From Prochlorococcus sp. AG-355-N18 (GTDB lineage Bacteria; Cyanobacteriota; Cyanobacteriia; PCC-6307; Cyanobiaceae), in the NCBI GenBank assembly GCA_003278535.1, contig QCEG01000003.1:43974-107973 (forward strand): a stretch of DNA of 64,000 nt, given 5' to 3'. This document shows, in pieces, positions 9,194-33,353 of the stretch (position 1 is its first letter; each line of letters starts with the position of its first letter). Below the pieces are notes generated by a model, which saw nothing but the letters and a program-made list of their open reading frames with translations, did not search any database and was not told where the DNA came from. The position numbers and the translations under genes were made by a program.

Positions 9194-10519
9194 ATGTTTA
9201 AACCTGAAAATAAAGTTTTTGAAGAAAGAAGAGAAATCTTCCTCAATAAATTAAATGGAAAAGCTGCTATTATTCCAGGTGCTAATCTCGTAAAGCATCA
9301 TGCTGATTGTGAATATCCTTTTAGACAAGATAGTAATTTTTGGTATTTAACAGGTTTCGATGAGCCAGATGCAATCGCTCTTTTCTTGTCGCATAAGCCA
9401 AAAGGAGAGAGATTTATTATGTTTGTTTCGCCTAAAGATGTTATAAGCGAAGTTTGGCATGGCTTTAGATGGGGTTTAGAAGGCGCTGAAAAAGAGTTTA
9501 ATGCTGATAAGGCACACTCAATAAACGAATTAAGAGATTTACTCCCAGCTTATATAAATGGTTCTGATGAACTTGTTTTTTCTATTGGTAAGCATCCATC
9601 AGTTGAAAAAATAATACTGGAAATTTTTTCACAACAATTTGAAAATCGCTCAAGATTAGGAATTGGCGGAAATTCTATAAAATCTCCAGAAATTTATTTA
9701 AATGAGATGAGATTAATTAAAAGTGAATTTGAAATTAAGAGAATGAGAGAGGCTATACAAATCTCAGCCGAAGCTCATGAATTAGTTAGACAATCTATTT
9801 CATCAAAGAAAAATGAAAGACAAATTCAGGGTCTTCTAGAGGGATTCTTTCTGGAAAAGGGTGCTAGAGGGCCAGCTTATAACTCAATTGTTGCATCAGG
9901 AGATAATGCCTGTATTTTGCATTACACTTCAAATAATGCACCCTTGAAGAAGGAAGATTTATTGTTGGTGGATGCTGGCTGCTCACTAATTGATTATTAC
10001 AATGGAGACATAACAAGAACTATTCCAATAGGTGGTAAATTTTCTAATGAGCAAAAAGTCATCTATGAAATTGTATTGAGTGCGCAGAAAAATGCAATTA
10101 AAAGTGCTGTAAAGGGATCTAATTCTAGCGCTGTTCATAATGTTGCCTTAACAATTCTCATAGAGGGACTAAAAGAAATTGGTTTATTGTCAGGCAGTAC
10201 TGAGAAGATAATTGAGAACCAATCTTATAAACATCTTTACATGCATAGAACTGGACATTGGCTCGGCTTGGATGTTCATGATGTTGGAGCATACAGAATG
10301 GGGGACTATGAAGTGCCATTACAGAATGGAATGATTCTTACGGTAGAACCTGGAATCTACATAAGTGATAGGATCCCAGTCCCTGAGGGGCAACCCCCTA
10401 TTGATGAGAAATGGAAAGGCATAGGGATAAGAATAGAAGACGATGTCCTGGTCACAGATACCAACCCAGAAGTTTTAAGTATTGGTGCACTAAAAGAAAT
10501 TTCTGATTTAGAATTTTGA
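9194..10519 (+). CDS. pepP: Xaa-Pro aminopeptidase (M24B)
   Basis: 441 aa. Motifs VDAG..I..Y..DITRT, HGTGHWLGLDVHD-like (HRTGHWLGLDVHD) and VEPGIY. Confidence 0.9.
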   Translation: MFKPENKVFEERREIFLNKLNGKAAIIPGANLVKHHADCEYPFRQDSNFWYLTGFDEPDAIALFLSHKPKGERFIMFVSPKDVISEVWHGFRWGLEGAEKEFNADKAHSINELRDLLPAYINGSDELVFSIGKHPSVEKIILEIFSQQFENRSRLGIGGNSIKSPEIYLNEMRLIKSEFEIKRMREAIQISAEAHELVRQSISSKKNERQIQGLLEGFFLEKGARGPAYNSIVASGDNACILHYTSNNAPLKKEDLLLVDAGCSLIDYYNGDITRTIPIGGKFSNEQKVIYEIVLSAQKNAIKSAVKGSNSSAVHNVALTILIEGLKEIGLLSGSTEKIIENQSYKHLYMHRTGHWLGLDVHDVGAYRMGDYEVPLQNGMILTVEPGIYISDRIPVPEGQPPIDEKWKGIGIRIEDDVLVTDTNPEVLSIGALKEISDLEF

Positions 10520-20353: not shown

Positions 20354-20664
20354 AAGATAAATAAAATTGGAAATTTTAGAAAATATTTCCCCCTCTAAAA
20401 AAAAATTTTTCACAACTTTTCCACAGTATATTTTTAAAAAATATCTGATGATCTAAAGCATGTGGAAAACTTCTGATTTTATATAAATCTTTATATTTAA
20501 GTAAGATTAAATTTTACAAAATTAATTTCAATGATCCCTGGCTTTACGACTGGATTCTCATTATTCTATGACCTGAGACTGTTTTTTATTAATGCTTGTT
20601 GACTATTTAATAATTTTAGAGAAAACTACATTTTGTAGATTTAAATTTCAACAAGTTTTTTAAT

Positions 20665-20916
20665 ATGCAAGAGTTAAATTACAACGAAAATTCAAAAGTA
20701 ATAAATCATAAAGATGAAGTAATAAGTTTCAAATGTGAACTTCAAGAAAATCTTCAAAAGGCTATGAAAGAATTTGTTGAGGAGCATCCTAACTGGGATC
20801 AATACAGGATAATACAAGCAGCTATTGCAGGATTTTTGATGCAAAAAGGATTTCAAAATAGGGATTTAACGAGACTGTATATTGGAAATATGTTTTCAAT
20901 GAATTTTAAGGACTAA
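20665..20916 (+). CDS. Conserved cyanobacterial hypothetical protein (DUF2811-like)
   Basis: 83 aa. ...HPNWDQYRIIQAAIAGFLMQ... motif. Confidence 0.5.
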   Translation: MQELNYNENSKVINHKDEVISFKCELQENLQKAMKEFVEEHPNWDQYRIIQAAIAGFLMQKGFQNRDLTRLYIGNMFSMNFKD

Positions 20917-20923
20917 AAATTTT

Positions 20924-21391
20924 TTATATTTTTTCTAGTAGTATTTTTGCAATATCATTTCTGACAGGTAATATCGATAACCTATTTCCTTTTTTTACAA
21001 CTAATAACTCATCCTCATTAAATAAAATCTTTAATTCAGGTAAACTTAAAATCTTATCTGACTTAGATTTATATTTCACTTTTACACAATCCCATCTTGG
21101 ATTATCAGGTTTCGATTTTGGATCAAAATATTTTGAATATTTATCAAATTGAGTAGGATCAACAATATTTAGATCTATTACCTCCATAAGTCCCACAATG
21201 CCTGGGGGTTTACAGTTCGAATGATAGAAAAAAACTTTATCCCCTTTTTTCATTTGTCTCATAAAATTTCGTGCCTGATAATTTCTTATTCCATCCCATA
21301 AAGTTACAACATCATTTTTTAAAGTATCTATGCTGTATGCGTCAGGTTCACTTTTCATTAGCCAGTAGTTTATTTTAGTCATAGCAATCAA
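20924..21391 (-). CDS. EVE (PUA-like) domain protein; last core gene before the island
   Basis: 155 aa. YWLMKSEPD.YSID.L......WDGIRNYQARNFMR.M..GD.VFFYHSN is a typical EVE/DUF55 N-terminus. Confidence 0.75.
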   Translation of the reverse strand: MIAMTKINYWLMKSEPDAYSIDTLKNDVVTLWDGIRNYQARNFMRQMKKGDKVFFYHSNCKPPGIVGLMEVIDLNIVDPTQFDKYSKYFDPKSKPDNPRWDCVKVKYKSKSDKILSLPELKILFNEDELLVVKKGNRLSILPVRNDIAKILLEKI

Positions 21392-21406
21392 TTAGAAGAT
21401 TATTAC

Positions 21407-21429
21407 AAAGTGTGGACGGGGTGTGGACA
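21407..21429 (+). repeat. Left copy of 23-bp direct repeat (putative att)
   Basis: Identical to 31740-31762. Lies 16 nt beyond the start codon of the EVE gene. Confidence 0.85.
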
Positions 21430-21597
21430 GAACCCCCTTTTTTTGTAGGAATTTGAACCCTATTCCTTTGATCTAATTTACCGTAAATAAATTAAACCTA
21501 AAAGTATATAGTTACAGATCGCTTGAGATACTTTTTATCTGTTCTCATTAATCTGTAGCTATTGAGAAGCCTAGTTATAGCTTGATTCTTGTTGCTT

Positions 21598-21630
21598 CTG
21601 TCCACACCTTTTTGTTAATCTGTCCACACC
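21598..21630 (-). promoter_or_regulatory. Two exact GGTGTGGACAG boxes (minus orientation) spaced 22 bp apart
   Basis: CTGTCCACACC at 21598-21608 and 21620-21630. The same 11-mer is on the plus strand at 21420-21430 inside the left repeat. Confidence 0.6.
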
Positions 21631-21698
21631 ACTAGGAAAGAAGTCAGTATATAACTAGCTTCAATAACGTCCTATACAAACCACGTATCAGAAGCAAA

Positions 21699-21878
21699 CT
21701 AAACTCTCATGCACCTTTCGAGCTGGTTGAGGAGGAGCTGGAGCTGCTTGTCGCTTAACCAGACTTGAATAGATTCATTACCTATCTCTCCTTGTACTTC
21801 ATAGTGTGGGAAGTGGACGAGATGTACTCTTTCCTTCTTCCCATGTTTAGTGTTAATAGTCTTTTCTACTGAAGTCAT
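21699..21878 (-). CDS. Small element-encoded hypothetical protein (59 aa)
   Basis: Internal Met of track ORF 21699..21914 gives an ATGA overlap with the stop of 21875..22195. GC-richer than its surroundings. Confidence 0.5.
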   Translation of the reverse strand: MTSVEKTINTKHGKKERVHLVHFPHYEVQGEIGNESIQVWLSDKQLQLLLNQLERCMRV

Positions 21879-22195
21879 TTGCTCTTCAAGAGGATAGCTC
21901 TTGCTTTGTTCCATCTATGCTCGAAAGACTCCTCTCTACTTGATTCTTCTATCTGATTTCCATACTCATCTACACCGTTGTAGTACACGCCTAGAACGTA
22001 CTCTACAAAGGGTTCAACGGCTTTCCTACTCTTAGATTTAAGAAGCTTTGTGAACGCTTCCATAGACCTCTGAAGCTTGTCACTCTGTAGGTTGTGAATC
22101 CATGAAGAACCTTGGTGATGGTAGATAAGAACCTTCACTACTTCGTCATAAGAAAGCCACGGATGAGCGTCTTTTATTTGTTGTGTTCTGTCCAT
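21875..22195 (-). CDS. Element-encoded hypothetical protein (106 aa)
   Basis: Track ORF with coding-like composition, translationally coupled to the downstream 59-aa ORF. Confidence 0.55.
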   Translation of the reverse strand: MDRTQQIKDAHPWLSYDEVVKVLIYHHQGSSWIHNLQSDKLQRSMEAFTKLLKSKSRKAVEPFVEYVLGVYYNGVDEYGNQIEESSREESFEHRWNKARAILLKSK

Positions 22196-22255
22196 TTGTT
22201 TAAGTTTTTATTGTTTAGTTATTTCTGTGTGATTTCGAGGGGTGGCATGGGGTCA

Positions 22256-22286
22256 ATGTGACCGTGCTACATCGTTATATGTGACC
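22256..22286. promoter_or_regulatory. Direct repeat ATGTGACC x2 (23-bp period) upstream of the 22195 operon
   Basis: ATGTGACC at 22256-22263 and 22279-22286, 60-90 nt upstream of the minus-strand start at 22195. Confidence 0.4.
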
Positions 22287-22307
22287 TGACAAATTTCTGT
22301 TGAAAAT

Positions 22308-22457
22308 TTACGGATACAACCTTTCAATAGCTTCTTTCTGCTCTTGCTTTTTTATCTCTTCAGCGTCTAAAACAGGGCAAGAGTTTTGATTCAGTGATGA
22401 GAGGAAAGTGCCTTTGCTGAATAGCTTGAACAGTGGTGGGAGAAGTAAGCGTTTCAT
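22308..22457 (-). CDS. Possible small ORF (49 aa)
   Basis: Hand-translated as MKRLLLPPLFKLFSKGTFLSSLNQNSCPVLDAEEIKKQEQKEAIERLYP*. No other support. Confidence 0.25.
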   Translation of the reverse strand: MKRLLLPPLFKLFSKGTFLSSLNQNSCPVLDAEEIKKQEQKEAIERLYP

Positions 22458-22476
22458 TTATTTAAGTAAATCAACA

Positions 22477-23472
22477 TTAGCATTTCCTTAGATTTTCTTT
22501 AGCCTCCTTGTTCCCATATTTTTTTGAAATTTTCCAATCCTTACATGCTTTTCTTCCATTTTTTTGATTTGCATTTTGAGCTAACCAGCTATATGCATTT
22601 CCTCTATATAAATGAAGGTTACCAAGGTTTAAAAAAACATCAAAACCCCTTTCGATCTCAAGCTTATTAGTCTCCTCCTGTGATGGAGCTAATTCAATAG
22701 ATTTTGAATAATCAAGAATAGCACTATTTAAAGTTTCTTTAGCAAGTTTTCTTTGATTATTATCTTTATACCAGAAATATAATTCAAATTTTATCCCTCC
22801 TATTTTTGCATAGCTATCGTATTTAACTCCAAATGGGAACAATCTTTTGATCATAAGATCCTTTTCATTACCTTTATTTGAAATGGATTTCTTAAAAAAT
22901 TCAATAGCTTCATTAGCTGATTTTATTGCCAAATTTGTCTTACCTTTATCGATTAAGTCATTTGAAAAATTAAAAAGATATTCTGCATATGCATAGTTTA
23001 TGTGAGGATTATTTGGAGATATTGCTAATGCTTTTTCCAAATCTTTTTTTGCAGCAGGATTATTTGACAAAGCCCAATTCGAAATACTACCTCTTACTGC
23101 ATAAGCAAATGCATATTGATCGTCAATTTCAATTGCTTTATTAAGATCGTTGATAGCATCTTTATGATTTTCTAAATCCCAAGAATAAATTACTGCCCTC
23201 AAAACATAAGATTCCTTAGAGTTTGCATTTTTTTCTAAATACTTATTTATTGCATTTAATGCTCCAGATGAATCCCCAGATTCAAAGAGAACTAAGGCAT
23301 TATCATATCCAGATATGAGAGATAAATTATTTCCCCCCCCAGACATACCTTCAATGCAACCTTTAAAGTCAGGGGCTTTCATACAGATTTCAGCAACTTT
23401 GGGATCTATATTTGCTTTAACAGCAGTAGGTAAAGCGAGAGCAGCTAGTAGCGGGAGTAGGAAGCTTTTCAT
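22477..23472 (-). CDS. Secreted TPR-repeat protein
   Basis: 331 aa. Signal peptide MKSFLLPLLAALALPTAVKA. Repeated A..Y/NLG..Y-type TPR motifs. Confidence 0.7.
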   Translation of the reverse strand: MKSFLLPLLAALALPTAVKANIDPKVAEICMKAPDFKGCIEGMSGGGNNLSLISGYDNALVLFESGDSSGALNAINKYLEKNANSKESYVLRAVIYSWDLENHKDAINDLNKAIEIDDQYAFAYAVRGSISNWALSNNPAAKKDLEKALAISPNNPHINYAYAEYLFNFSNDLIDKGKTNLAIKSANEAIEFFKKSISNKGNEKDLMIKRLFPFGVKYDSYAKIGGIKFELYFWYKDNNQRKLAKETLNSAILDYSKSIELAPSQEETNKLEIERGFDVFLNLGNLHLYRGNAYSWLAQNANQKNGRKACKDWKISKKYGNKEAKENLRKC

Positions 23473-23856
23473 TTATTCCCAAGTTTTCATATCAGTAGTT
23501 CCTTGTGATCTTTGCATCCAAGAATATTTCCAAGTACCATTTACATTTTTAAAAATGCAAGTGTAAGTTGAAAGATCTTTATTTTGATTCCCTTTATAAC
23601 TGAAGATTTCATTTAAAGTAAAAACTGCATAGGCTATTTCACCGTAAATTTCAATCTTGTGGGTTTTGATTAGTTCTGATGATTCTGCGACTAAATCTTT
23701 ACTATCAAACATTCCCACTAATCCCTTTGCAGAGATTGGATTTCCACTTGGTCTTACAGCTAAAAAATCCTCGGTTACGTTTGGTATTAGAAAAGAAGAA
23801 TCTTCACTGGTTGCATAACCATTAATTAAATCTTCTATGGCTTTAGTATTTGACAT
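23473..23856 (-). CDS. SnoaL/NTF2-like (DUF4440-like) small protein
   Basis: 127 aa. Its stop abuts the TPR gene start. A decayed paralog lies at 47668-48052. Confidence 0.55.
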   Translation of the reverse strand: MSNTKAIEDLINGYATSEDSSFLIPNVTEDFLAVRPSGNPISAKGLVGMFDSKDLVAESSELIKTHKIEIYGEIAYAVFTLNEIFSYKGNQNKDLSTYTCIFKNVNGTWKYSWMQRSQGTTDMKTWE

Positions 23857-23973
23857 TAATAATGGAACTAATTAACAGGCATGATAGTTATTAATCCAAG
23901 TAAGAACAATGTTGAATTAATGAGTCTTCATTTTTAGATTATTAGGCATGTAACCAACTGTTACTACGTACGA

Positions 23974-24049
23974 ATGTGGACATAAAATTTATAGTTTACC
24001 TTCACTAAAGGTATCGATGCTGATAATAAATAGTACCTATGTGGACAGG
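23974..24049 (+). promoter_or_regulatory. Two ATGTGGACA boxes in divergent intergenic region
   Basis: aATGTGGACAtAAAATTt (23974-) and tATGTGGACAggtAAAATTa (24039-), same orientation, about 65 bp apart. Confidence 0.5.
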
Positions 24050-24127
24050 TAAAATTAAAAGAAAAAACATCCCTTAAAGCATGTTATTGCAAGCTATTAT
24101 CTATTTAATTGTTTCACTTTAAATGAC

Positions 24128-24466
24128 ATGGCTAAGCACTACTTGATTGCAGTAGAAGATAAAGATGAGAAGCTATTTAGATTGTTTTGTGAGAAGAATT
24201 CTAAATATGCGATGGTAATAGGAAAAGAGACTACAAATGATCGTTTGGGGTTAGATCATTTGGTTTACATACTCAACTCAATTAGTAATCAAGTTGGAAA
24301 ATCTATAGGAATTAAAGAATGGGATAATTTAAGAAAATACTTGAAGAAAAAAGAAAAGCAATATTGTCCAGAGTTAGAAAACTATAGAGAATTTAAGTAT
24401 CAAAGTGATAAACAGTTTGATGATGATTTAGCTTTTCCAATGAATAAGAAAGTTTATCGTAGATGA
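24128..24466 (+). CDS. Hypothetical protein (112 aa)
   Basis: Track ORF with no recognisable domain. Confidence 0.45.
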   Translation: MAKHYLIAVEDKDEKLFRLFCEKNSKYAMVIGKETTNDRLGLDHLVYILNSISNQVGKSIGIKEWDNLRKYLKKKEKQYCPELENYREFKYQSDKQFDDDLAFPMNKKVYRR

Positions 24467-24473
24467 ATGATTA

Positions 24474-24731
24474 CTAATTGGTGAGTAGTTTGGAGTAACT
24501 AACCGGACTATATTTACTACGCTTGTTGTCTGTAACCCTTGTCTCGTATAAATCAGCCATTCCACTTGCTATATCTTGGCACTTAGTTAAGACTGCTGAT
24601 CTTACAAACGTGGATACATCTTCGTATCCTGCCGCACCCATGAGTGAAAGCATCGAATCATAAGCTTTTTCGTCAATTCTTGTTCCGACAATATACGCTC
24701 CGTGGTCTGGTTTCTTGTTGGCTTTAAACAT
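24474..24731 (-). CDS. Ribbon-helix-helix (CopG/Arc-like) DNA-binding protein
   Basis: Using the internal Met (MFKANKK...): beta strand GAYIVGTRIDEKAYDSM followed by helices ...GYEDVSTFVRSAVL fits the RHH pattern. Confidence 0.55.
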   Translation of the reverse strand: MFKANKKPDHGAYIVGTRIDEKAYDSMLSLMGAAGYEDVSTFVRSAVLTKCQDIASGMADLYETRVTDNKRSKYSPVSYSKLLTN

Positions 24732-24793
24732 ATAAGTGAATGAATAGAAAATAAAAAACACTGGTCTTACTCTTCCTTGGAAAATGCCAGTTT

Positions 24794-25450
24794 TTAGATA
24801 CCTACATAACTACGTTTCTCTTGTTGTCTCTTAAGACTCTCCTTCTTCTCCTCTCTCAACCTAATCTCATGAAATATCAACTCTCTAAGCCGTAGTTCGA
24901 GAGGTGATGGTTCATTACTTCTGCCTTCCACTAACTGAAGCTTGACCATAATAAGTAACTCATCCATGGATGGGTCTGCTTTGGTATGTTTCTTCGTGTC
25001 TAACTTCTTGCCTAGTGGATGCACTTTGTTTTTGAGATCATCTAAAGTTTTCTGGGAAACTTGCTCACCAATACTCCACAGAACCACAACATCATTGAAG
25101 TTAGCCTTAGCTAGTTGATATTGTTTAAACGTCCCGTGACTGTCAAACCATTTAAAGAATGTATCAGGCTCAGTACTGTGTAACTCCCTAAAAGCGTTTA
25201 CAGTCCTTAGCTTGCTGATATAACCCTTTGAAATACCTAATTCATCTAGAAATGGTTGAACGTATGTCTTGGCTTCTTTACTAGCAGTCTTCAACCACTC
25301 ACTATAGATAAAAGATATAGCTCCCTTAGATTCGTCATACTGTTGAAGATGAGGTTTAAGTTTTTGATTTAACTGTTTAAGTTCTTGAGTTGTTGGTTGA
25401 GATAGATGGGTTGTTGTCTGGATAAGTTCAATGTTTGTCATAGGTATCAA
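24794..25450 (-). CDS. HTH-containing protein adjacent to iteron array (candidate replication initiator/regulator)
   Basis: 218 aa. HTH-like LGISKGYISKLRTV and a basic coiled C-terminus. The start faces the repeats at 25486-26509. Confidence 0.5.
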   Translation of the reverse strand: MIPMTNIELIQTTTHLSQPTTQELKQLNQKLKPHLQQYDESKGAISFIYSEWLKTASKEAKTYVQPFLDELGISKGYISKLRTVNAFRELHSTEPDTFFKWFDSHGTFKQYQLAKANFNDVVVLWSIGEQVSQKTLDDLKNKVHPLGKKLDTKKHTKADPSMDELLIMVKLQLVEGRSNEPSPLELRLRELIFHEIRLREEKKESLKRQQEKRSYVGI

Positions 25451-25503
25451 TAGTGTTATTAATGTATGTCCGCGTTATTAGTAACTACCTAACCATCCAT
25501 GAA

Positions 25504-25633
25504 AGAGACAGTTAGAGTATTTGTGGATTGGTAGGTTAGAGAAGTTAAAGTTAAGTTAAAGCTAAGTTAGAGACAGTTGGAGTATGTATGGATTGGTAGG
25601 TTAAAGAAGTTAAAGTTAAGTTAAAGCTAAGTG
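25504..25633. repeat. 65-bp tandem repeat x2
   Basis: AGAGACAGTT(A/G)GAGTAT.TGT.GGATTGGTAGGTTA.AGAAGTTAAAGTTAAGTTAAAGCTAAGT. repeated head-to-tail with a few mismatches. An imperfect inverted copy of GGATTGGTAGG lies at 25486-25500. Confidence 0.9.
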
Positions 25634-25837
25634 TTATAAAGATATCCAATCACCCGCTCACTTCGTTCGCTGAGGATATAGATATAACTTGTTGTCTTTA
25701 AGTTAACGAAGTTGGCTCCGCCCCTTACCTTATAAGAACTACCGCCCGCCCCAAACGGTAGTAATAGCAGTTAGTTAAGTCTGCGGGTCATTCAATTTTT
25801 AGTTAGGAGATATTTGTATTGTTTGTCTCCTTGTTTA

Positions 25838-26509
25838 AGGTGGCTACCGCTTCATCCTGTATACATTACGGTATCCCTCTGTTTACGTAACACTTCAGTC
25901 TTTTGGTGTATACGTAACTGAACCCCTTTGTCCTGTATAGGTAACGGTTTAGAGTTTCTCTCTTTTAAGCCCGCCATCGATCTCTGTATTAGTTGGTATC
26001 TGCTCTCCCACTAAAGGGAGGTGCTTGATTCTCTCACTAATAACCCATGCTTGCTCCCTGTATAAGGGTGTGATTGCTCACTCTCTAGTGATTGCAAGGG
26101 ATTAGAGATTCTCTCTGTATAAGTGTCGGGTCGCTCTTCTCCCTTATAACCCGTCATTGCTCACTCGCTAGTTATCGCAATGGGTTTGAGTTTCTCTCTG
26201 TTTAAGCCCGCCATTGCTTTTCTCCCTAATAGGGGGCTATCGGTCACTCGCTAGTGATACCAGTGGATTAGAGATTCTCCCTCTATAAGGGTCGGATCTT
26301 TCCTGTATAAGCCCGCCATGCCTTTTTCCCTATATATGCGCCATCGGTCACTTACTTGTGATTGCAAGGGTTTAGAAGTTCTCTCTGTATAAGTGTGGGA
26401 TCGCTCCTGTATAGGTGCGTGCTTGCTCTATGTATAAGCCCGTGATCGGTCCCCTCTGTATACGTGACTGTTCGGAGTTTCTCCTGTATACGTAACTGTA
26501 CCCCTTTCC
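25838..26509. repeat. GC-rich iteron array: ~22 units of 21-29 bp (core CTGTATAAG-N-CCGCCAT-GCTC) plus 4 copies of a 36-bp submodule
   Basis: Unit starts read by eye at 25857, 25879, 25906, 25933, 25962, 25984, 26008, 26034, 26058, 26115, 26142, 26198, 26225, 26281, 26303, 26329, 26385, 26406, 26430, 26455, 26484. Submodules are at 26078, 26161, 26244, 26348. Confidence 0.9.
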
Positions 26510-26811
26510 TTGAGTAAATTTTTTAGGTATAAGTGGTCTAAGGACTTGTCCCTTCCTGAGGACTTGAGCCTAGCGGTTTCAAGGTTAACCCCGCGCTCCT
26601 ACGCACGAGTACAAAAACCTTTTTTATTAATGAAACTCTCTTCTAGGACACTCAGCTTGCTGCTTAATGTGGCTCTTGTGCTGTGTGTCTTTGTTATTTA
26701 AAAACTTACTTTAATAAATTAAGCAAAGCCAAATAAAAAGTTAAATTTCTGGGGTTTGTTGTAAAAGCATTTTATAAATTAAATCAAAATTTAATATTCG
26801 GAAAAAGATTT

Positions 26812-26985
26812 ATGGAAAATAAAAAAGAGATAAAAGTAGAGCGATTAAATTTTTACTCAAATTATATGACCGTAGCTAAAGATCAGCTAGCGCAAAATCA
26901 CTTAAAGTTGACCTATCAAAGAAACTTAGTTTCTGATCTAGACCAAAAACATAAAACATGGGCTAAAGAAGATGCGGCAAGTTAA
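26812..26985 (+). CDS. Small protein (57 aa), DLDQKHKxW family
   Basis: MENKKEIKVERLNFYSNYMT...VSDLDQKHKTWAKEDAAS*. Paralog at 55993..56154 shares FYS...DLDQKHK.W.K. Confidence 0.5.
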   Translation: MENKKEIKVERLNFYSNYMTVAKDQLAQNHLKLTYQRNLVSDLDQKHKTWAKEDAAS

Positions 26986-27480
26986 TTACTTGTTAAAAGT
27001 GATTATATTTTTAAAAAATATGTTCCTCAGTTTATGAGGACACAAGAGATGAGATTGGTAACGAGGAGTAATTTATAAGTTAAAAGGGTGATTCGAGATC
27101 TAAAACATAAGCTCAACTTATTACCGTGCACTTGCAGATAAACCAACCTTATTAGGTCGTACTTGTGACCTAAAGCCATTCTTTATTAATTAGGGACCAC
27201 TATAGGAGAACAGAAATAACTTGTAGAGAAATCTGAGAAAAAGATCTTATTCCTGTGGATAAATTCTAATGTAACGAAATTAAAGAAAAGTGTAATAATC
27301 TTTAGAACAATTACCATGACTTAATTTATATAATGTAGTACTGTTAACAGTATTATCGGTAAATATGGGATCTATTGTTATGACTAGGTTTTCCACATGC
27401 ATTAATTAATATTTAAGTTAAATTATTTGTAGAGGTTGTTGATACTAACTAAATGAAACATTCTGGGCAGTTTTCATGAA

Positions 27481-28443
27481 GTGCAACCTCTAAATATTCA
27501 ATTATCTAATAAAACAATGGAGAAGGGAAAACAAAAATGCTTAATGTGTGAAGAGACTTTTGTGAAAAAGAATCCTAAACATGTTTGTTGTTCTCCGAGA
27601 TGTAATAGTAAAAAAAAGAATGAAAAGCTAAAACAAGAAAATAAAATAAAACTTCAATCAATCTCAAGAATATGCAAAAGCGAAACTTGTAATAATATTT
27701 TTTCTCCTACTCAAAGAATAGATCAATTATTTTGCTCTACCGAATGCTGTGAAAGACAAGGGAAAAGAGATTATAAAACTAGAAATCCTGAGAAAATAAA
27801 AAAATCAGAGAATAGAAGAAAGAAATTCAAATATCATAATGATCCTATAGATAGGGAGAAAAAGATTAATGCTTCAAATACCAGATACCACAAACTTACA
27901 CCCGAAGAGAAGAAGGAAAAAAGTAAAAATAATAGATTAACCAATCCTCAAAAAACAAGAGATTATGCACGTGAATATCACTCTCGGAGATCCAAAGAAG
28001 ATCCAAATTTTAAACTTGCAAATACTATTAGATCTAGGATTAACTCAGCGATTACAAAGGTTGGAGGTAAAAAGACAGCCAAAACTCTTGAATTACTTGG
28101 ATGCTCCATTGAGCTTTGCAGAAAATATATTGAAGCTCAATTTGAGAAAGGGATGTCTTGGAGCAACTATGGACTTTGGGAGATAGATCACATCAAACCT
28201 GTTTCAACATTTGATGATTTAACAACGAAGAAATCTCAACAACTAATATGCTTCAACTATAAAAATTTGCAACCTCTTTGGAAGCAAGAAAATAATTCAA
28301 AACTTGGTACTTTCCGACCTGAAGATAAAGTAATTTTCTTTGAAAGATTTTATCTTCCAGAAGAACTATATGAAGAAATTCAAGAAAGGAGAAAGCTTAA
28401 CTTAAGTAGAAAATCATTAGCCATCCCAATCAAAAATGTATAA
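27481..28443 (+). CDS. HNH endonuclease with N-terminal Cys-rich zinc-ribbon repeats and basic repeat region
   Basis: 320 aa (GTG start; alternative ATG at 27517). Two CxxC...CCSxxC / C..C...CSTECC units. HNH core EIDHIKP...NLQPLWKQENNSK. Confidence 0.75.
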   Translation: MQPLNIQLSNKTMEKGKQKCLMCEETFVKKNPKHVCCSPRCNSKKKNEKLKQENKIKLQSISRICKSETCNNIFSPTQRIDQLFCSTECCERQGKRDYKTRNPEKIKKSENRRKKFKYHNDPIDREKKINASNTRYHKLTPEEKKEKSKNNRLTNPQKTRDYAREYHSRRSKEDPNFKLANTIRSRINSAITKVGGKKTAKTLELLGCSIELCRKYIEAQFEKGMSWSNYGLWEIDHIKPVSTFDDLTTKKSQQLICFNYKNLQPLWKQENNSKLGTFRPEDKVIFFERFYLPEELYEEIQERRKLNLSRKSLAIPIKNV

Positions 28444-28615
28444 AGAAAAAGAATCAACAAAACTACTTCGAATGGTTCTTTCAATAAGAAATGATTTAGA
28501 TCAAATCGAGCATTCCGAAACATGCAAGTTTCTCGAAGTACGAAGATTAGAGCAATTAGACAAAGCGTTTACCGCAAGCTTATTCCAAACCCTTATAGAT
28601 GAAGTAATCGTATGA
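28436..28615 (+). CDS. Small helical protein (59 aa), overlaps HNH stop by 8 nt
   Basis: MYKEKESTKLLRMVLSIRNDLDQIEHSE...LFQTLIDEVIV*. Roughly one-third identical by eye to the next ORF. ATGA overlap with it. Confidence 0.5.
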   Translation: MYKEKESTKLLRMVLSIRNDLDQIEHSETCKFLEVRRLEQLDKAFTASLFQTLIDEVIV

Positions 28616-28827
28616 AAAGCTTACCAACAGAAAACAGACCATCAACCAAGATCCTTCAAGATTTAATCTCAGTAAGGCAAAAATTAATGGTAATAGAAAG
28701 TTCTAATGAACCATTTATCTCTAAGCTTGATCCGCTACTAGAACGTGATAAGCAATTATCAGAATGTCTGGTTCAATACCTTATATATGAACTAGATTTG
28801 AATTTAAAAGAGGAGGTAAAAGAATGA
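28612..28827 (+). CDS. Small helical protein (71 aa), tandem paralog of 28436..28615
   Basis: Shared pattern L..L.S.R..L..IE.S......L..L...DK....L.Q.LI.E. ATGA overlaps on both sides. Confidence 0.55.
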   Translation: MKSLPTENRPSTKILQDLISVRQKLMVIESSNEPFISKLDPLLERDKQLSECLVQYLIYELDLNLKEEVKE

Positions 28828-29300
28828 AGAAACTTGCTCTTCTTTTTCTCTTCTTATTCGAACCTCTTGCTTACTCAGCTACTGAGAATGAAACAACTAA
28901 ACCTAAATCTCAAATTCTAAATAATCCATTTGAAAGACTAGGAAAAGAAGCAAAATTTAACTGCAAAGAATTTGGAGAGGAAAGTTGTTTCTCAAGATTT
29001 ATTGCGATGTCCGCGTGTGTATTTGCTCAAAGCATCAATAGCGATAAGACAGTTAAAGAGTCTTTAGATATTGCAGATGATTTATTTTATCTACTTGCTT
29101 CAGGTCATGGATTAGATATTAAAAATATTTTTGATGACAAAGATTTGATCAAGCAAGATATCCGAGTTGAAACGATTGCAAGAGTTAATAGATGCAATGA
29201 ATGGGCAAAAGAAGCAATTCCAAAAATTGTTCTCGAGCGAACTGGCAAACCAGCAACACCAGAATTTATTGAAGGTGCAACTAGGACATTTGGTATGTGA
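28824..29300 (+). CDS. Secreted hypothetical protein (158 aa)
   Basis: Signal peptide MKKLALLFLFLFEPLAYSA. Last gene of the four-gene overlapping set. Confidence 0.55.
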   Translation: MKKLALLFLFLFEPLAYSATENETTKPKSQILNNPFERLGKEAKFNCKEFGEESCFSRFIAMSACVFAQSINSDKTVKESLDIADDLFYLLASGHGLDIKNIFDDKDLIKQDIRVETIARVNRCNEWAKEAIPKIVLERTGKPATPEFIEGATRTFGM

Positions 29301-29372
29301 TGGTTGAGCAGTCTTGAGGGTGTGAAACAAAGAGGGAAATGATTACATCATCTCGAAGTAAGCGTTTCAAAA

Positions 29373-29657
29373 TTATTCAGAAATCCAGCGGTTAATTATT
29401 GTCCCTTCATAAATATGACCGGATGCTTCAACTATTGGTTTGGTTTCTGGGTTAATAAAGATGTCATAACAAGTATTTACTGGTCCTTGAAACATAACGG
29501 TTGCTCTTTTGGGGTCTTCTAATGATTTGCCAATATAAAAAGTTTTTACTCCCATCTCTTTAAACATGGCTTGTTGTTCAGGAGCATTCATATGAGACTC
29601 ATATTCTTCAAAAGTATTGCTTAATTTGAAATCTAAAACAGTTGTTTCAATAGTCAT
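29373..29657 (-). CDS. Hypothetical protein (94 aa)
   Basis: Track ORF with coding-like composition. No domain recognised. Confidence 0.45.
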   Translation of the reverse strand: MTIETTVLDFKLSNTFEEYESHMNAPEQQAMFKEMGVKTFYIGKSLEDPKRATVMFQGPVNTCYDIFINPETKPIVEASGHIYEGTIINRWISE

Positions 29658-29711
29658 AAAAAAGAAGGGTGTAATCCCTTCAATATTAATGAACTTTTAA
29701 TTTATATAAGT

Positions 29712-30023
29712 CTAAACTTTATCAAGTTCTAATTTTTTAGCGGTCTCAAGAAATTCTTCATCAGTCATCATTGCTCTTATTTCAACTTTCACTCCAAATC
29801 CCTTAATCCATGGAGCGGTATGTTCCCAAATCTTTTGTGGACTTTCCGCTTCCACAATAAAATTTCCAGTTCCATTTTGTGGATCTAAGACTCTATATTT
29901 AATTTCAAATCCCTCAAACTTGTCACCCTGCTTACCCTCCGATAAATATTGAACAAAAGCTGGAGTACATTTAACGCTAGCTTCCTGATTAGGGAAAGCC
30001 CAAAATACTTGATAAGTAGTCAT
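29712..30023 (-). CDS. DUF3303-like small protein
   Basis: 103 aa. Pattern M..Y.V.W...F...G....G...R..P..GTG..IVEA.S......PW.....V.I...M.DEE matches my memory of DUF3303. Confidence 0.5.
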   Translation of the reverse strand: MTTYQVFWAFPNQEASVKCTPAFVQYLSEGKQGDKFEGFEIKYRVLDPQNGTGNFIVEAESPQKIWEHTAPWIKGFGVKVEIRAMMTDEEFLETAKKLELDKV

Positions 30024-30152
30024 AAATAATTATTACTGATGAAAACAAATTAATATAATTTTCACAAATTACTTTGTTATTTTTTGAAATTCATATCTTT
30101 AAAAAATAAAAATTTACTATTTTAATTTGGCTTGACTATCAATAACATGATT

Positions 30153-31265
30153 TTATTCGTCGAATAATTGAATAGTTTCTGGTCTTTGTCTCTTTTTACC
30201 AAATTCAATATCTGTTAACTCTTTGGTTCTCTTTCTAATGTCTATCCTTTCGTAAGTCTGCATAATCGTAGCTACAGAGTTACCGCAAATACGAGCGAGT
30301 AGATAAGCGTCAGTACCTCTCAAGATATGGTTTTCGATAAAGGTTGATCTCATTGAATAGAGAGTATAAGGACGGTCTGAGAACTTATGACCTTTGAGCT
30401 TTCCAGCAGACATTAAGTAATTACATATCCATCTCCAATGCTGACCGATCTTTCTTTGGTTAGGTTGGTTTAACTCGTTGAATATCTGAGCGAAAACATA
30501 TTCGTCGCCTTTAATAGTGTGGTTAAATTCTTTCTTTAGAATTTCCTTCCAACGCTTGAAAACACTACCTAAGTCACAAGGTATCTCTCTGTACTCCTGA
30601 GTCTTCGCTCTCATTGTTGTTATGTATGCGATAAGTCTTTCTTCTCGACCCCATTCAGTACCTTCTGGAGCCCATTCAGAGGGGTCTTTCAAGTCAGGTG
30701 CTTCTATCTCTAGCTCTACTCCGTCGGCTTGAGCTTCTCCCATTACTTGCTCCCATTCTTCTTGAGCTTTAGTGTTTGATACTCTTCCTACATCAACAAT
30801 TTCTACATTCTTCCATTTGAGTTTGCAGATTTCTTCAGGAGACATACCTGAGTTTTTAGCAACTAAAATCCAATGCCAGAACATATTTCTAAACCATTTA
30901 CTCTTGGCTGTAGTTTTTCTATCAACTATCTTTATATCTTTTCTGAATTGATTAGTTGAAGGTAGCTTAGAGGGTTCATAAGCTTCTTTCCTCCATTTGT
31001 TTCTAACGTGATTGATTATGATTTCCCAGTCTTCAGGATTGATTGCTGGGTTTGCATCTCTGTCGCTCTGTCTGACTTCTATCTTTGGTAAGAATTGACC
31101 ATCCATCCACAAGCGAGCTTCGACATACTTGAACTTAACTAGATAGCTTTTAATAAATTCTCCGAGGACTGAAAGCTCTCTTTGAATAAGGATTCTTTTA
31201 TCTGTATCCTTTAGACGAAAAATACAATAATCATCGAAAGTTGATTCATTGATTTGAGAAGACAT
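30153..31265 (-). CDS. Tyrosine-recombinase-like integrase, catalytic portion (atypical active-site residues)
   Basis: 370 aa. Box I-like WILVAKNSGMSPEEICKLKWKNVEI, box II-like YTLYSMRSTFIENHILRG and LARICGNSVATIMQTYERI (nucleophile Tyr context). Confidence 0.7.
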   Translation of the reverse strand: MSSQINESTFDDYCIFRLKDTDKRILIQRELSVLGEFIKSYLVKFKYVEARLWMDGQFLPKIEVRQSDRDANPAINPEDWEIIINHVRNKWRKEAYEPSKLPSTNQFRKDIKIVDRKTTAKSKWFRNMFWHWILVAKNSGMSPEEICKLKWKNVEIVDVGRVSNTKAQEEWEQVMGEAQADGVELEIEAPDLKDPSEWAPEGTEWGREERLIAYITTMRAKTQEYREIPCDLGSVFKRWKEILKKEFNHTIKGDEYVFAQIFNELNQPNQRKIGQHWRWICNYLMSAGKLKGHKFSDRPYTLYSMRSTFIENHILRGTDAYLLARICGNSVATIMQTYERIDIRKRTKELTDIEFGKKRQRPETIQLFDE

Positions 31266-31282
31266 TGAAACCTTTTTATGTT

Positions 31283-31738
31283 TTAAATAAAACTTGATAT
31301 GTCGGCAGCAATTAAACTTGTGATCGAATGATGTTTTGCAAGAGCTCCAGCATCTACTCTCTTTTGCTCTTGTGTGAACCAGTCTTTAAAAGCTTTTTCA
31401 AGATTGATTTTAGGGTTCTCTTCCTTCTTCTTAGCTTTAAATAATTTCTCTTTAGCTCTCTGAAGCTTCTCCTCTCTAGCCATTAAATCAAGAGGGTCTA
31501 TGTTGCTAGGCGTTGGAGGTTTAGCTGCTAGAGATTGAGCTAGTTCGATAGCTACTTGAGGAGCTAGTTCAATAGCTTCTTGTAAGTTTGTAGCTCCTTC
31601 TATCTTCTTTTCTCTATAACTCTTTTTACCTTTTACCTTCTCTTTGTAATACCAGTTACCAGCTCCATTCCCGTTCGCATATAGAAGAACTCTACCTAAA
31701 CCATTTAATACTGTTTCTTGCTGGGCTATTTGCGGCAT
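31283..31738 (-). CDS. Integrase N-terminal (arm-binding-like) domain encoded as a separate ORF
   Basis: Start taken at Met10 of the track ORF. GRVLLYANGNGAGNWYYKEKVKGKKSYREKKI..ATNLQEA resembles DUF4102-type integrase N-termini. Stops 17 nt before the catalytic ORF. Confidence 0.5.
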   Translation of the reverse strand: MPQIAQQETVLNGLGRVLLYANGNGAGNWYYKEKVKGKKSYREKKIEGATNLQEAIELAPQVAIELAQSLAAKPPTPSNIDPLDLMAREEKLQRAKEKLFKAKKKEENPKINLEKAFKDWFTQEQKRVDAGALAKHHSITSLIAADISSFI

Positions 31739-31739
31739 A

Positions 31740-31762
31740 AAAGTGTGGACGGGGTGTGGACA
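31740..31762 (+). repeat. Right copy of 23-bp direct repeat (putative att)
   Basis: Identical to 21407-21429. Sits immediately upstream of the recombinase locus. Confidence 0.85.
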
Positions 31763-32061
31763 CACTATAGCTCAATTATAAAAACTTAGTCATAGGCTAC
31801 TGGTACATGGTTCATTAACCAGTAGTTAGGTTCTGTCATCGTCTATGATTTGAGGAGAATAGTTCTGCTGGTGTTTGCTGGTATGGCAGTTTGTTAACTT
31901 TTTCGTAAGTCAGCCTAATTCAAACCATTTTATTCAGTTTATCGAAAAATATTAGTCGAAGAAAGTTAGGAAAAATATAGAAATAGATTACTTAATCCGG
32001 ACTTTTTGTTTTTGGAATAATTGACAGTCGATCTAAAATTGGAATGGTAGTTAAGTCTTAA

Positions 32062-32151
32062 ATGATTGGAAGTTTACCAAAATCAATTGCACTTCTTATG
32101 GTCTTGCTTCTTGTAGGAAGTACTTTTATTGGTGGAATTTTTACTTTCTAA
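32062..32151 (+). CDS. 29-aa single-TM micro-protein (LLMVLLLVGS family)
   Basis: MIGSLPKSIALLMVLLLVGSTFIGGIFTF*. Paralog at 47588..47677 (MGLAKLIALLMVLLLVGSSFIGLILYFIK*). Confidence 0.5.
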   Translation: MIGSLPKSIALLMVLLLVGSTFIGGIFTF

Positions 32152-32336
32152 AATGATGGCAAATCCAGATCAGAAAACAATATTGCTTGAGCAAGCTTAT
32201 GACGAAATTAAGGTCATTTGAACCAAGTTTCAAGATGAATCAGGAGCTACAGATATGGAGGTGAAAACTCTACTAAGAGAACTTGCTAGGGTTTGGAAAA
32301 AGATATTGATGAAGATTATGACATAGATTGAGAAGT

Positions 32337-32585
32337 TTAAAAAAAACTTCTAAAAATACTGGTCTTTTTCCAACCCTGCTCTAATAGTGCCTTATATTCT
32401 TTTCTCGCATTTTCTATAGTCTCAACCCTGCTACCTTTCATAACTGGTTTGCTACTTCTCTTGTAAACACATCCATAGGAGATCATCATTGAATCAATAC
32501 TAGGACTAAGCTTAGATACATCTTCAAATGGTTCAAAGATTTTTATACTGCTTCTTTCCTTATTTATGAGAGTAAATTTCATCAT
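32337..32585 (-). CDS. Hypothetical protein (82 aa)
   Basis: Track ORF. Its start overlaps the stop of 32585..32836 by 1 nt. Confidence 0.45.
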   Translation of the reverse strand: MMKFTLINKERSSIKIFEPFEDVSKLSPSIDSMMISYGCVYKRSSKPVMKGSRVETIENARKEYKALLEQGWKKTSIFRSFF

Positions 32586-32836
32586 TACTTACCTTTGGAT
32601 AAAAGATAATTTAAAAAGACACCTCCAGAAACTAATAAACCACCTATAGCTAAAAATCCAAGTAAATCTAATATTGATTTATCTGTATTTATTTTCAAAA
32701 AAGTTAAAGAAAAAGCTATTGGAGGGAACAATAATATTGATTTTGGAATAAGTGCCTGATTCCATTTCTTTGTCGCAGTATCTTCTTCATTTAGTTCTTG
32801 ATACAACTTTTCTAACTTTTTTCTTTCTTCTTCCAT
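32585..32836 (-). CDS. Hypothetical membrane protein (83 aa)
   Basis: Acidic N-terminus then two TM helices. Coupled to the downstream ORF. Confidence 0.45.
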   Translation of the reverse strand: MEEERKKLEKLYQELNEEDTATKKWNQALIPKSILLFPPIAFSLTFLKINTDKSILDLLGFLAIGGLLVSGGVFLNYLLSKGK

Positions 32837-32916
32837 TGAGTTAGCTCAGTTAATTTCAAAATACTTTATAAAAGTAGAGGAAGTTAAATCTTCCCTTAGT
32901 ATTTATTTAGCCAACT

Positions 32917-32946
32917 AAAAAAAAAGGAGCTAGTTGCTCCTTTTTT
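32917..32946. terminator. Bidirectional intrinsic terminator
   Basis: A9-GGAGC-TAGTT-GCTCC-T6 between the start of 32585..32836 (-) and the stop of the cupin gene 32967..33353 (-). Confidence 0.55.
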
Positions 32947-32966
32947 CGATAGTTAATCAAATTGAT

Positions 32967-33353
32967 TTATTCTTCAGGATTCAACGTAGGTATACCTTCT
33001 GCTGAAGCCACAGCAACCCACATAACTGCTGAAGTATTACCACTATTAGCCATTGTATGAGCAGGAGTATTTGCTGAGAGAACAAATGAATCCCCCTCCT
33101 TAAAAGTTTTACTAATACCTGTCTTTTCAGCAAGAGTTAATTCACCACTTTCAATATGACCCAGTAAAGGTACAGGATGAGAGTGCATTGGAATTGTTGC
33201 TCCATTTTCAACTTCTACTCTAATCAAACGCATTTCAGCTTTTCCTCTCGGATACTTAAAATTATCCCCATCAATGTTTTCTGAAGAGGTGAAGATTTCT
33301 TGTACATCAACAGGTGATTCTGCAGCCATAGAAATGCTTGGATTGATAAGCAT
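32967..33353 (-). CDS. Cupin-domain protein, probably secreted
   Basis: 128 aa. Cupin motif MHSHPVPLLGHIESGEL...GDSF. The in-frame upstream sequence encodes a signal-peptide-like stretch without a start codon. Confidence 0.6.
   Translation of the reverse strand: MLINPSISMAAESPVDVQEIFTSSENIDGDNFKYPRGKAEMRLIRVEVENGATIPMHSHPVPLLGHIESGELTLAEKTGISKTFKEGDSFVLSANTPAHTMANSGNTSAVMWVAVASAEGIPTLNPEE

Follow-up and report, generated by a model that had tools for sequence, protein, structure and literature searches.

A probable integrative element of Prochlorococcus with a putative attachment site in the 5′ end of an EVE-domain gene and class-specific, putatively arm-type repeats

The stretch of DNA analysed here, 64,000 nucleotides of Prochlorococcus sp. 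AG-355-N18 (assembly GCA_003278535.1, contig QCEG01000003.1, positions 43,974 to 107,973; hereafter the window), contains a segment that is probably a site-specific integrative element of 10,457 bp, measured from core to core (approximately 21361 to 31817), with its attachment site at the 5′ end of a gene coding for an EVE-domain protein. The probability given to this reading, in which a 23-bp sequence (AAAGTGTGGACGGGGTGTGGACA) present near both ends provides arm-type sites, is roughly 0.78. The two 23-mers are likely to be docking sites for the integrase that are built into each end of the element, rather than products of recombination. An initial annotation of the segment had taken them as the boundaries and attachment site of a recombinase-driven cargo element lying in a Prochlorococcus island and making no use of tRNA genes. 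An element of that nature is supported here, with its ends placed elsewhere.

Two sets of loci were compared with the window. The first comprises 80 Prochlorococcus EVE loci retrieved through the EVE protein (86-96% identity), mostly from single-cell genomes of the high-light clade HLII with at least one labelled HLVI, and the second comprises 80 metagenome integrase loci. Individual loci and contigs are referred to by L-numbers. The features on which the argument rests are as follows.

20924..21382, minus strand: EVE-domain core gene, the integration target; codons 1-6 and the 5′ untranslated region read as element-supplied, codon 7 onwards as host-derived
21354..21370, minus strand: EVE-proximal core copy, reading AACTACTGGCTAATGAA; strict core 21354-21364, putative 7-bp crossover TAATGAA at 21354-21360
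21407..21429, plus strand: left 23-mer, a tandem GTCCACAC pair of 11-bp period at -64/-53 from the core; read as proximal P-arm pair
21599-21607 and 21621-21629, minus strand: inverted motif copies (GTGTGGACA) with 22-bp spacing, at about -265/-243; read as distal P-arm sites
30153..31738, minus strand: tyrosine integrase gene, inward-facing; a single open reading frame (ORF) of ~528 aa in relatives, split here
31740..31762, plus strand: right 23-mer, a tandem GTCCACAC pair (8-bp sites) at +60/+71; read as P′-arm pair and possible auto-operator in the integrase leader
31786..31886, minus strand: displaced older EVE 5′ end with short ORF MTEPNYWLMNHVPVAYD* (31786-31839), of which 31811-31839 is resident pre-insertion sequence
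31811..31827, minus strand: distal core copy and right element end, reading AACTACTGGTTAATGAA, with one synonymous C>T

Element boundaries and the EVE target

The EVE gene matches the Pfam EVE family with an E-value of 1.9e-52. The 80 EVE loci are near-identical from TACTGGCTAATGAAAAG / TACTGGCTAATGAAAAGTGAGCC onwards, and upstream of this point the first six or so codons and the 5′ region fall into at least 10 discrete types. The 11-bp core TGGCTAATGAA, which encodes the residues W-L-M-K (EVE codons 7-10), is found a second time at 31811-31821, 10,457 bp from the copy within the gene, and a repeat search paired the first 16 EVE codons (21336-21382) with 31793-31839 at this same distance and 70% identity.

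With blastn, the right flank of the window matches intact type-D EVE loci exactly to 31811, which corresponds to locus position 10029 and the final base of TGGCTAATGAA. When set against type-D loci (L028 and L021 among them), the right junction is a CATACCAGCA-type EVE 5′ region as far as ...ACTGGTTAATGAA, after which it diverges. This end of homology places the element boundaries at the core copies 21354-21370 and 31811-31827. On the left, the homology of all EVE loci to the flank begins inside EVE codons 7-10. The same flanks are thus seen with boundaries other than those of the initial annotation, as right-flank homology stops at 31811 and not at 31762, and each true end is displaced by approximately 50 bp. 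Since these limits of homology fall at cores outside both repeats, both 23-mers fall within the element, at distances of 42 and 48 nt from the core copies.

The two cores differ at one synonymous position, which is CTA at the left and TTA at the right, and the T variant is also present in some type-D loci (L042, L079). Together with the divergence directly after TGAA, this C/T difference would confine the crossover to TAATGAA. The ~528-aa tyrosine integrase is proposed to recombine the 11-bp core, with strand exchange most likely taking place within these seven bases. The element would bring its own EVE codons 1-6 and upstream region, so that insertion would rebuild an intact EVE gene, while the previous 5′ end would be pushed outwards as the stub at 31786-31839. 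This displaced stub still has the upstream region that belongs to it, together with a CATACCAGCA arm pair (31865-31886) that has decayed and is a leftover of an earlier element. Repeated rounds of insertion could build an island in this manner, as partial tRNAs do in the islands of tycheposons.

Two other candidate sites were considered. A core-like match near 28413-28423 is ascribed to chance, as it lies inside a Cys-rich ORF with no EVE context and approximately one such match is expected by estimate. An inverted repeat, CTACTGG/CCAGTAG (31797-31803 and 31819-31825, also in L082), brackets the distal core and the element start; it may be a pair of core-type binding sites, although it is off-centre relative to the attP-attB identity, and it was left unassigned.

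The 23-mer

Two exact copies of the 23-mer, both on the plus strand and 10,333 bp apart, occur in the window, as had been reported, and no additional copies were found there at up to three mismatches (0 expected from 100 shuffles). The identity spans exactly 23 nt, the bases on either side differing at both ends. Each copy is itself a tandem repeat of 11-bp period, GTGTGGAC-GGG-GTGTGGAC. The described positions also hold: the left copy lies 16 nt from a TTG start and 24 nt from an ATG start of the EVE gene, and the right copy comes to within 1 nt of the integrase ATG. The absence of a tRNA at the junctions extends to the whole window, in which ARAGORN detected no tRNA or tmRNA.

The exact 23-mer was not found in the 165 loci compared (L167 not being among them), and it is not a dispersed repeat. 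An empty site carrying a single 23-mer had been predicted for related genomes; instead, relatives without the element have a different EVE 5′ region joined at the core TGGCTAATGAA.

Integrase

Compared with relatives, a deletion of 1 nt between 31337 and 31336 splits the integrase gene of the window into a 151-aa ORF (31283-31738) and a 370-aa ORF (30153-31265). The gene is in frame in L028 and L076, and a relative 90% identical over the N-terminal part also reads through. The 370-aa ORF has 243 homologues, nearly all of them unnamed proteins of marine metagenomes or Prochlorococcus; those that are full-length have approximately 500-540 aa.

The assignment as a tyrosine recombinase stands, albeit with weak detection by sequence: Pfam Phage_integrase gave an E-value of 4e-4, which is below the cut-off, PHROG_1 integrase gave 2.6e-8, and no match was found in NCBIfam or among PDB sequences. 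In an alignment of 28 sequences the catalytic motifs TxRAKTxxxREIP, YSMRSTFIE and G(H/N)SV...TYER are kept, with invariant R, K, R and Y residues and with Asn in place of the penultimate His in the subgroup of the window. An AlphaFold2 (AF2) model (predicted local distance difference test score, pLDDT, 76) shows a four-strand sheet and a helix at residues 4-72, followed by a helical linker and then the body of the protein. Foldseek assigned this model to the tyrosine recombinase fold, the top matches being Cre, Tn1549 Int, XerA and IntI with E-values down to 3e-7. From a start 72 nt away from the distal core, the integrase gene runs inwards into the element.

Putative arm-type sites and their covariation with the integrase N-terminal domain

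Most EVE upstream types have their own tandem repeat of 8-10 bp with an 11-bp period at the position of the left 23-mer, examples being GTTCACAC, ATTCTAGCA, TTCACGAT, CATACCAGCA, TGACTAGCAA, ATTCGAAC, ATCCACAC and TTATTCACAC. In all three genomic copies that bear an integrase (the window, L028 and L076), the same motif is present at both ends of the element and differs between elements, the motifs of L028 (ATACCAGCA) and L076 (TTATCCAAAC) both being unlike that of the window. Inverted pairs lie at similar offsets in L028 (as a single copy), L076, L082/84, L095, L098/99, L116 and L167.

Seven motifs share one layout, consisting of an inverted pair at approximately -265/-243 (range -224 to -495), a direct pair at approximately -64/-53, the core, and a direct pair at +60/+71. 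The motif is found nowhere else in the seven elements or contigs, save for a single additional copy each in L082 and L098/99. An eighth motif, ATCCACAC in strain MIT 9211, has direct pairs at similar offsets and its inverted pair approximately 3 kb from the core. Among the marine loci with sufficient upstream sequence and at least 44% integrase identity, the distance from the EVE core to the integrase ATG downstream of it is 70-200 nt in every case except L114, and nearly all of them have a tandem repeat between the core and the ATG.

The similarity of motifs was compared with that of the integrases by a Mantel test, using residues 2-62 as the N-terminal part and the last 300 residues as the C-terminal part. 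Motif similarity correlates with identity over residues 2-62 (r=0.50, p=0.0002); no such correlation was found for the C-terminal 300 residues (r=-0.07, p=0.72), nor between the N and C parts themselves. This pattern is illustrated by L082, whose catalytic part is 94% identical to that of the window and whose spacer between core and integrase is nearly the same, while the N-domains are only 57% identical and the repeats differ (ATTCACGAT versus GTCCACAC). Both repeat and N-domain have been exchanged between the two.

The N-terminal domain of approximately 60 residues, a beta-sheet with a helix, is proposed to bind the arm sites as in lambda Int. In an excised attP the order would be the pairs at about -265/-243 and -64/-53, the core, the pair at +60/+71 and the integrase ATG. 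Arm motif and N-domain would then form a swappable specificity cassette, with more than 10 classes operating on one core and one catalytic scaffold.

Other sequences were noted in the P arms. In L001, L005, L013, L076 and others, a box ACTTTCCTAAATAG..ACTTTGATGGATAATRA is present approximately 95-100 nt upstream of the EVE core; it is not present in the window. The end of the P-arm box, TGGATAATGAA, is a one-mismatch copy of the core and could be a secondary site for the integrase or for an accessory factor. In L166 (1-100), a type-A P-arm backbone (GTTCACAC...) appears to be joined directly to the start of the integrase with the core missing between them, the result of a deletion between two arm pairs or of a chimeric assembly.

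attP-type junctions

A circular junction had been sought in the initial annotation. L167, a metagenome contig of 1151 nt found with the N-domain of the window, joins homologues of both ends of the element across one core. It carries an inverted GTGTGGACA pair, CGTCCACACCCCGTCCACACTTT, an EVE start with TGGCTAATGAA, the exact 23-mer and the integrase ATG. The exact copy adjoins the ATG and a copy with one mismatch lies across the core. Positions 139-478 of this contig correspond to window 21698-21348, and positions 444-976 to window 31839-31308. The attP predicted for the window (418 nt) aligns with the contig in one high-scoring segment pair of 413 columns at 80.6% identity. L167 is thus an attP-type junction of a sister element.

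The arm pairs are contiguous around the core in L167, L116, L082/84, L095 and L098/99. In L116, a cognate arm and a homologue of the 106-aa gene from the end of the window element are found upstream of the core. The integrase of L115 is identical to that of L116, but the core there is preceded by a foreign EVE stub, the two contigs differing solely to the left of TGGCTAATGAA. Contigs of the L167/L116 type represent either junctions of excised circles or junctions between tandem elements of the same type.

Structure and distribution of EVE islands

To count EVE 5′ copies, a strict copy was defined as Y/F-W-L-M-K/N after an in-frame ATG, and 81 sequences (the 80 loci and the window) were scored within 10 kb. 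A pseudo-core box, GATGGATAATRA, which is frequent in P arms, was left out of the core counts, giving a maximum of five core copies per locus. In 33 of the 81 sequences two to five EVE 5′ copies are present, all in the same orientation. These copies delimit 57 inter-copy segments, of which 28 have detectable pairs at both ends. The ends are cognate in 15 of these 28, compared with 4.6±1.9 in shuffled data, and none of 5000 shuffles reached 15. Most inter-copy segments are relics, and the window element is the largest segment of those compared. The window island spans EVE to speB and lies beside rpoZ and pyrR.

Genes for DUF3804 and the 106-aa ORF recur in islands without an integrase. Integrase-less segments of near-identical size also recur across several genomes at the species level (L005 3864-7398, L017 1180-5047, L040 1742-5590 and L061 4140-7674), as does a module of 2,621 bp (L002, L005, L009, L023, L053, L072 and others), and some such segments carry a perfect cognate arm pair at either end (ATTCTAGCA class). 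The recurring integrase-less segments could represent old relics; alternatively, they may be non-autonomous and mobilised in trans.

The family extends beyond these islands. The cultured low-light (LL) strain MIT 9211 (CP000878) has an intact 503-aa integrase and a segment of 11,052 bp whose two ends carry ATCCACAC pairs. This segment lies between two EVE 5′ copies (cores at 1366049 and 1377101 in the coordinates of the record), with several more stubs present, and it holds a DnaB_C/AAA_25 gene. In contigs with a guanine-cytosine (GC) content of 39-43%, the core has synonymous Leu codons (TGGCTGATGAA, TGGCTCATGAA) and sits behind an EVE-like start, with arm classes including CATTGTAA. With more distant integrases (33-36% identity; L124-L144, on contigs of 50-59% GC where checked), the EVE core is not found upstream, and approximately two-thirds of those checked have tandem repeats of 11-bp period before the start codon (ATACCCAC, AATACCAAC and others). 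The presence of such repeats without the EVE core suggests that the arm-site architecture may predate the EVE target.

Alternative explanations

Several observations weigh against an integrative element with arm-type sites. The frameshifted integrase means that the copy in the window may be immobile and fixed in place. An intact integrase of the family occurs in just two of the 80 islands (L028 and L076), with remnants in L039 and L003, and the ends are non-cognate in 13 of the 28 relic segments. Neither relatives of the integrase nor the 23-mer are present in IMG/VR, which leaves packaging in viral contigs unsupported. The N-domain showed no significant match to solved arm-binding domains by sequence or fold, and its alignment with the lambda Int N-domain by hhalign is weak (E-value 0.018, probability 2.5%), for which reason arm binding by the N-domain remains inferential. 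In none of 22 metagenome contigs checked was a terminal overlap found, so none of these closes on itself. L167 and the other attP-like contigs could therefore be joints of tandem elements of the same type and not circles. Finally, the overlap of the repeats with promoter-like hexamers leaves an operator role possible: the left pair overlaps a promoter-like -35 for EVE (TCCACA-17-AATAAT), and the right pair is situated in the leader of the integrase gene, directly behind the TATAGT of ATGACT-18-TATAGT, which ends at 31764, neither promoter-like match being above chance.

This last overlap is in keeping with an explanation in which some factor that is not the integrase, such as the small RHH-like (ribbon-helix-helix) protein of the element, uses the tandem repeats as operators or promoter elements, so that they co-regulate integrase and EVE and have no part in recombination. 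Direct repeats of 11-bp period are typical for winged-helix regulators, which fits with such a role. However, the motif covaries with the N-terminal domain of the integrase, the distances between motif and core are fixed in elements having no other gene in common with the window, and the 95-aa and 218-aa proteins of the window are absent from L028 and L076, whose sites are equally regular. An exclusively regulatory function is accordingly considered unlikely. The two roles are compatible, as arm sites can double as operators, and those described here probably do so for the integrase gene and EVE. The view of the 23-mer as an attachment site duplicated on integration, with the element running exactly from 21407 to 31762 in the intergenic region upstream of EVE, draws on the perfect direct repeat that brackets integrase and cargo and on the copy abutting the integrase, as att sites often do. 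It is very improbable given that flank homology to relatives stops at the EVE core, approximately 50 bp outside each 23-mer, that no relative has the 23-mer at an empty site, that the equivalent repeats of elements sharing the insertion point differ and change with the integrase N-domain, and that in L167 the two copies flank a single core within a contiguous stretch. The island could also have arisen through homologous recombination and duplication around the EVE start with no active site-specific system, the integrase being a decayed passenger and the EVE 5′ pieces scars. The split integrase, the rarity of intact copies and the many mismatched ends noted above would be expected from this, as would the shuffling of cargo between elements (L090). 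Yet the breakpoints of dozens of independent junctions fall in the same 11 bp, catalytic residues and full length are conserved in more than 200 integrase homologues, the core retains its place upstream of the integrase start in the marine loci (L114 excepted) and attP-type junctions exist, making an origin of this kind quite unlikely; homologous recombination probably reshuffles relics but leaves the architecture unexplained. Site-specific integration at the EVE core with arm-type sites is therefore the preferred reading.

Comparison with known systems

Tycheposons integrate at seven tRNA/tmRNA genes with partial tRNA duplications of approximately 40 bp (Hackl et al., bioRxiv 10.1101/2020.12.28.424599). 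According to the same preprint (10.1101/2020.12.28.424599), their hallmarks are a site-specific integrase, mostly of a tycheposon-specific tyrosine recombinase lineage, along with primase, helicase, polymerase, xis and a regulator; the replication module is described as optional, with helicases among the replication genes listed. Like tycheposons and cryptic elements, the window element has a Prochlorococcus host, an inward-facing site-specific tyrosine integrase at one end close to the distal core, and niche-type cargo (TPR, DUF3804, DUF3303, DUF3764 and HNH-like operon). Serial integration at one anchor gene, with accumulation of partial target copies and decayed elements into an island, is also shared, as is the DnaB_C/AAA_25 gene in the case of the MIT 9211 relative. 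Unlike tycheposons, the anchor is the EVE 5′ end, a piece of which is duplicated, instead of the ~40-bp 3′ part of one of the seven tRNA/tmRNA genes. No replication or mobility hallmark was recognised in the window copy with Pfam, PHROGs, NCBIfam or PADLOC, in agreement with the earlier remark that no primase or helicase was visible.

Both non-tRNA integrase groups and 'cryptic_B' groups appear in Supplementary Table 5 of the preprint, the latter having been left out of its analysis; one group is described as having a 'highly conserved integration site' (10.1101/2020.12.28.424599). The family of the window may be one of these cryptic groups, in which case its existence has probably already been seen. 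EVE, a protein-coding target, arm sites or a multiplicity of arm classes are not mentioned in the available text and supplements of the preprint (10.1101/2020.12.28.424599). The element is a tRNA-independent relative of tycheposons or of these published "cryptic" elements.

The organisation also resembles that of lambda-type systems, in that the core is flanked on both arms by clusters of short repeats distinct from it, some tandem and some inverted, the P′ cluster adjoins the integrase gene, the catalytic residues of a tyrosine recombinase are present, and the core-binding and catalytic domains come after a small beta-sheet/helix domain at the N-terminus. Heterobivalent integrases of this type have arm-type sites in attP (P1/P2 and P′1-3 for lambda Int, and also L5, HP1 and Tn916 Int). 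Unlike them, integrases of the window family are approximately 170 aa longer with a long helical linker and insertions, and the N-domain has no match to solved arm-binding domains beyond the weak hhalign result. More than 10 arm classes are found here on a constant core, which is the opposite of lambda and HK022, where the arms are shared and core specificity differs. The combination of a constant core with many arm classes seems to be undescribed.

The tyrosine integrase of SXT/R391 elements targets the 5′ end of the conserved gene prfC, and the EVE elements are similar in targeting the 5′ end of a conserved protein-coding gene. They differ in that the window element has no conjugation genes, is approximately 10 kb rather than approximately 100 kb in size and has an integrase of a different family. 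To our knowledge, neither tandem accumulation of displaced 5′ ends nor multiple arm classes are features of SXT.

Significance of the element family

The interesting part of these findings is the pattern at the level of the family, as the window copy may be inactivated by its frameshift. On balance, and by a small margin, it is favoured that Prochlorococcus and probably marine Synechococcus-like hosts carry a large family of elements with one protein-coding attB (the W-L-M-K codons of EVE) and a dozen or more mutually orthogonal classes of arm site and N-domain. As part of this same reading, the P arm, core, P′ arm and N-domain would form in the excised circle a contiguous cassette of approximately 450 bp, exchanged among integrases that are otherwise 85-95% identical.

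Prochlorococcus islands have so far been explained by elements inserting at seven tRNA/tmRNA genes, and here the anchor of the same serial integration and decay would be the first codons of a protein-coding gene. If correct, this amounts to a tRNA-independent route of island formation and to a natural set of orthogonal integrases for a host without genetic tools. The attB is conserved in 80 of 80 EVE loci, and core-bearing EVE 5′ copies are also present in the LL strain MIT 9211; with this conservation and with intact integrases in a cultured strain, the family could supply orthogonal tools for site-specific integration in an organism known to be difficult to engineer. Each class pairs an 8-bp arm motif with an N-terminal domain of ~60 aa, which can be seen as a natural experiment in the evolution of arm specificity in heterobivalent integrases. 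More speculatively, private arm codes would let each element of a tandem array excise only itself, and they could be the basis on which autonomous elements compete with hitchhikers that have no integrase but retain cognate arms. For annotation, the start codon, first residues and promoter of EVE are element-derived and hypervariable.

Genes and other features of the element

The remaining features, from the EVE-proximal end to the integrase, are as follows.

21699..22195, minus strand: two small conserved ORFs of 106 aa and 71 aa at the EVE-proximal end
22477-23472, minus strand: TPR protein (Pfam) with an N-terminus that is signal-peptide-like by eye
23473-23856, minus strand: DUF3804/DUF4440 protein (Pfam)
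24128..25450, both strands: candidate regulatory/maintenance module with a 112-aa ORF (plus), a 95-aa ORF (minus) and a 218-aa all-helical protein (minus)
25504..26462, minus strand: repeat array upstream of the 218-aa gene; a 65-bp unit twice (25504-25632) and approximately 12 degenerate units (25827-26462)
26511..26706, minus strand: conserved non-coding module of ~197 nt, common to approximately 18 loci and 86-89% identical to the window copy
26812..29300, plus strand: opposite-strand cargo of a 57-aa ORF, a 320-aa Cys-rich protein and three coupled small ORFs (59, 71 and 158 aa)
29373-29657, minus strand: DUF3764 protein (Pfam)
29712-30023, minus strand: DUF3303 protein (Pfam)

Homologues of the 106-aa ORF adjoin EVE in 13 loci and the attP-like junction in L116, and neither this ORF nor that of 71 aa gave family matches in Pfam, PHROG and NCBIfam scans. 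General Pfam and PHROG scans found no Xis-like family among the small ORFs; those of 95, 106 and 71 aa are candidates for directionality or bending factors (Xis, IHF-like). The TPR and DUF3303 proteins of the initial annotation were both recovered with Pfam, the latter with its DUF3764 neighbour, and the protein termed SnoaL-like is present as well, its match being to DUF3804/DUF4440. It is found at 97-100% identity in seven other EVE islands that lack the integrase of the window. The DUF3303 and DUF3764 proteins are 99-100% identical in L090 (1902-2549), where they lie behind an integrase of another arm class (71% identical to query P0002), a likeness suggesting that cargo has recently moved between elements that differ in arm class.

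The opposite-strand cargo has no PADLOC or Pfam match and no homologous DNA in any compared locus. Its 320-aa Cys-rich protein showed a weak HNH-like or NinG-like match, and the designation of an HNH operon has nothing beyond this weak PHROG match behind it. PADLOC found nothing to mark the cargo as a defence system.

In the candidate regulatory module, the 112-, 95- and 218-aa proteins gave no family matches; the RHH and helix-turn-helix genes reported earlier thus lack database support, the resemblance of the 95-aa ORF to a ribbon-helix-helix protein being by eye alone. Homologues of the 218-aa protein number 29, all unnamed, and in L161-L165 the protein is paired with an ORF of 85-87 aa. 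Its AF2 model (pLDDT 67) found no fold match in PDB, and no defence match was found with PADLOC. The repeat array upstream of it is GC-richer, its degenerate units contain TATACAGRGAG, and its periodicities range from 22 to 104 bp (83- and 104-bp super-repeats with a 22-bp sub-period); parts of it recur in L028, L086, L118, L084 and L093. The iteron array of the initial annotation is thus a real degenerate repeat array (approximately 25500-26500), which may be an iteron origin, a regulatory array or RNA genes. No known Rep-family initiator of the kind that accompanies iterons was recognised beside it. The 218-aa protein was also considered as a replication initiator for the array, on account of its position, and was set aside for want of any family, defence or fold match; its homologues in L161-L165 have no comparably long upstream region.

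Copies of the ~197-nt module were identified in L091 (1765-1945), L039 (6000-6180), L072 (3371-3567) and approximately 14 others. It follows directly after the integrase stop in L091 and L039, and in integrase-less relics its distance from the core is constant at +162. RNAalifold predicts a cloverleaf-like four-way junction with almost no covariation. ARAGORN and Rfam gave no match to the module, and Rfam found no family in 20500-33000. The module holds a GGYTCAAGTCC motif that is T-loop-like by eye.

To the right of speB, the window has a very low GC content from 36000 to 64000 (down to 0.20 at 49-50 kb), and this region may be another large genomic island.

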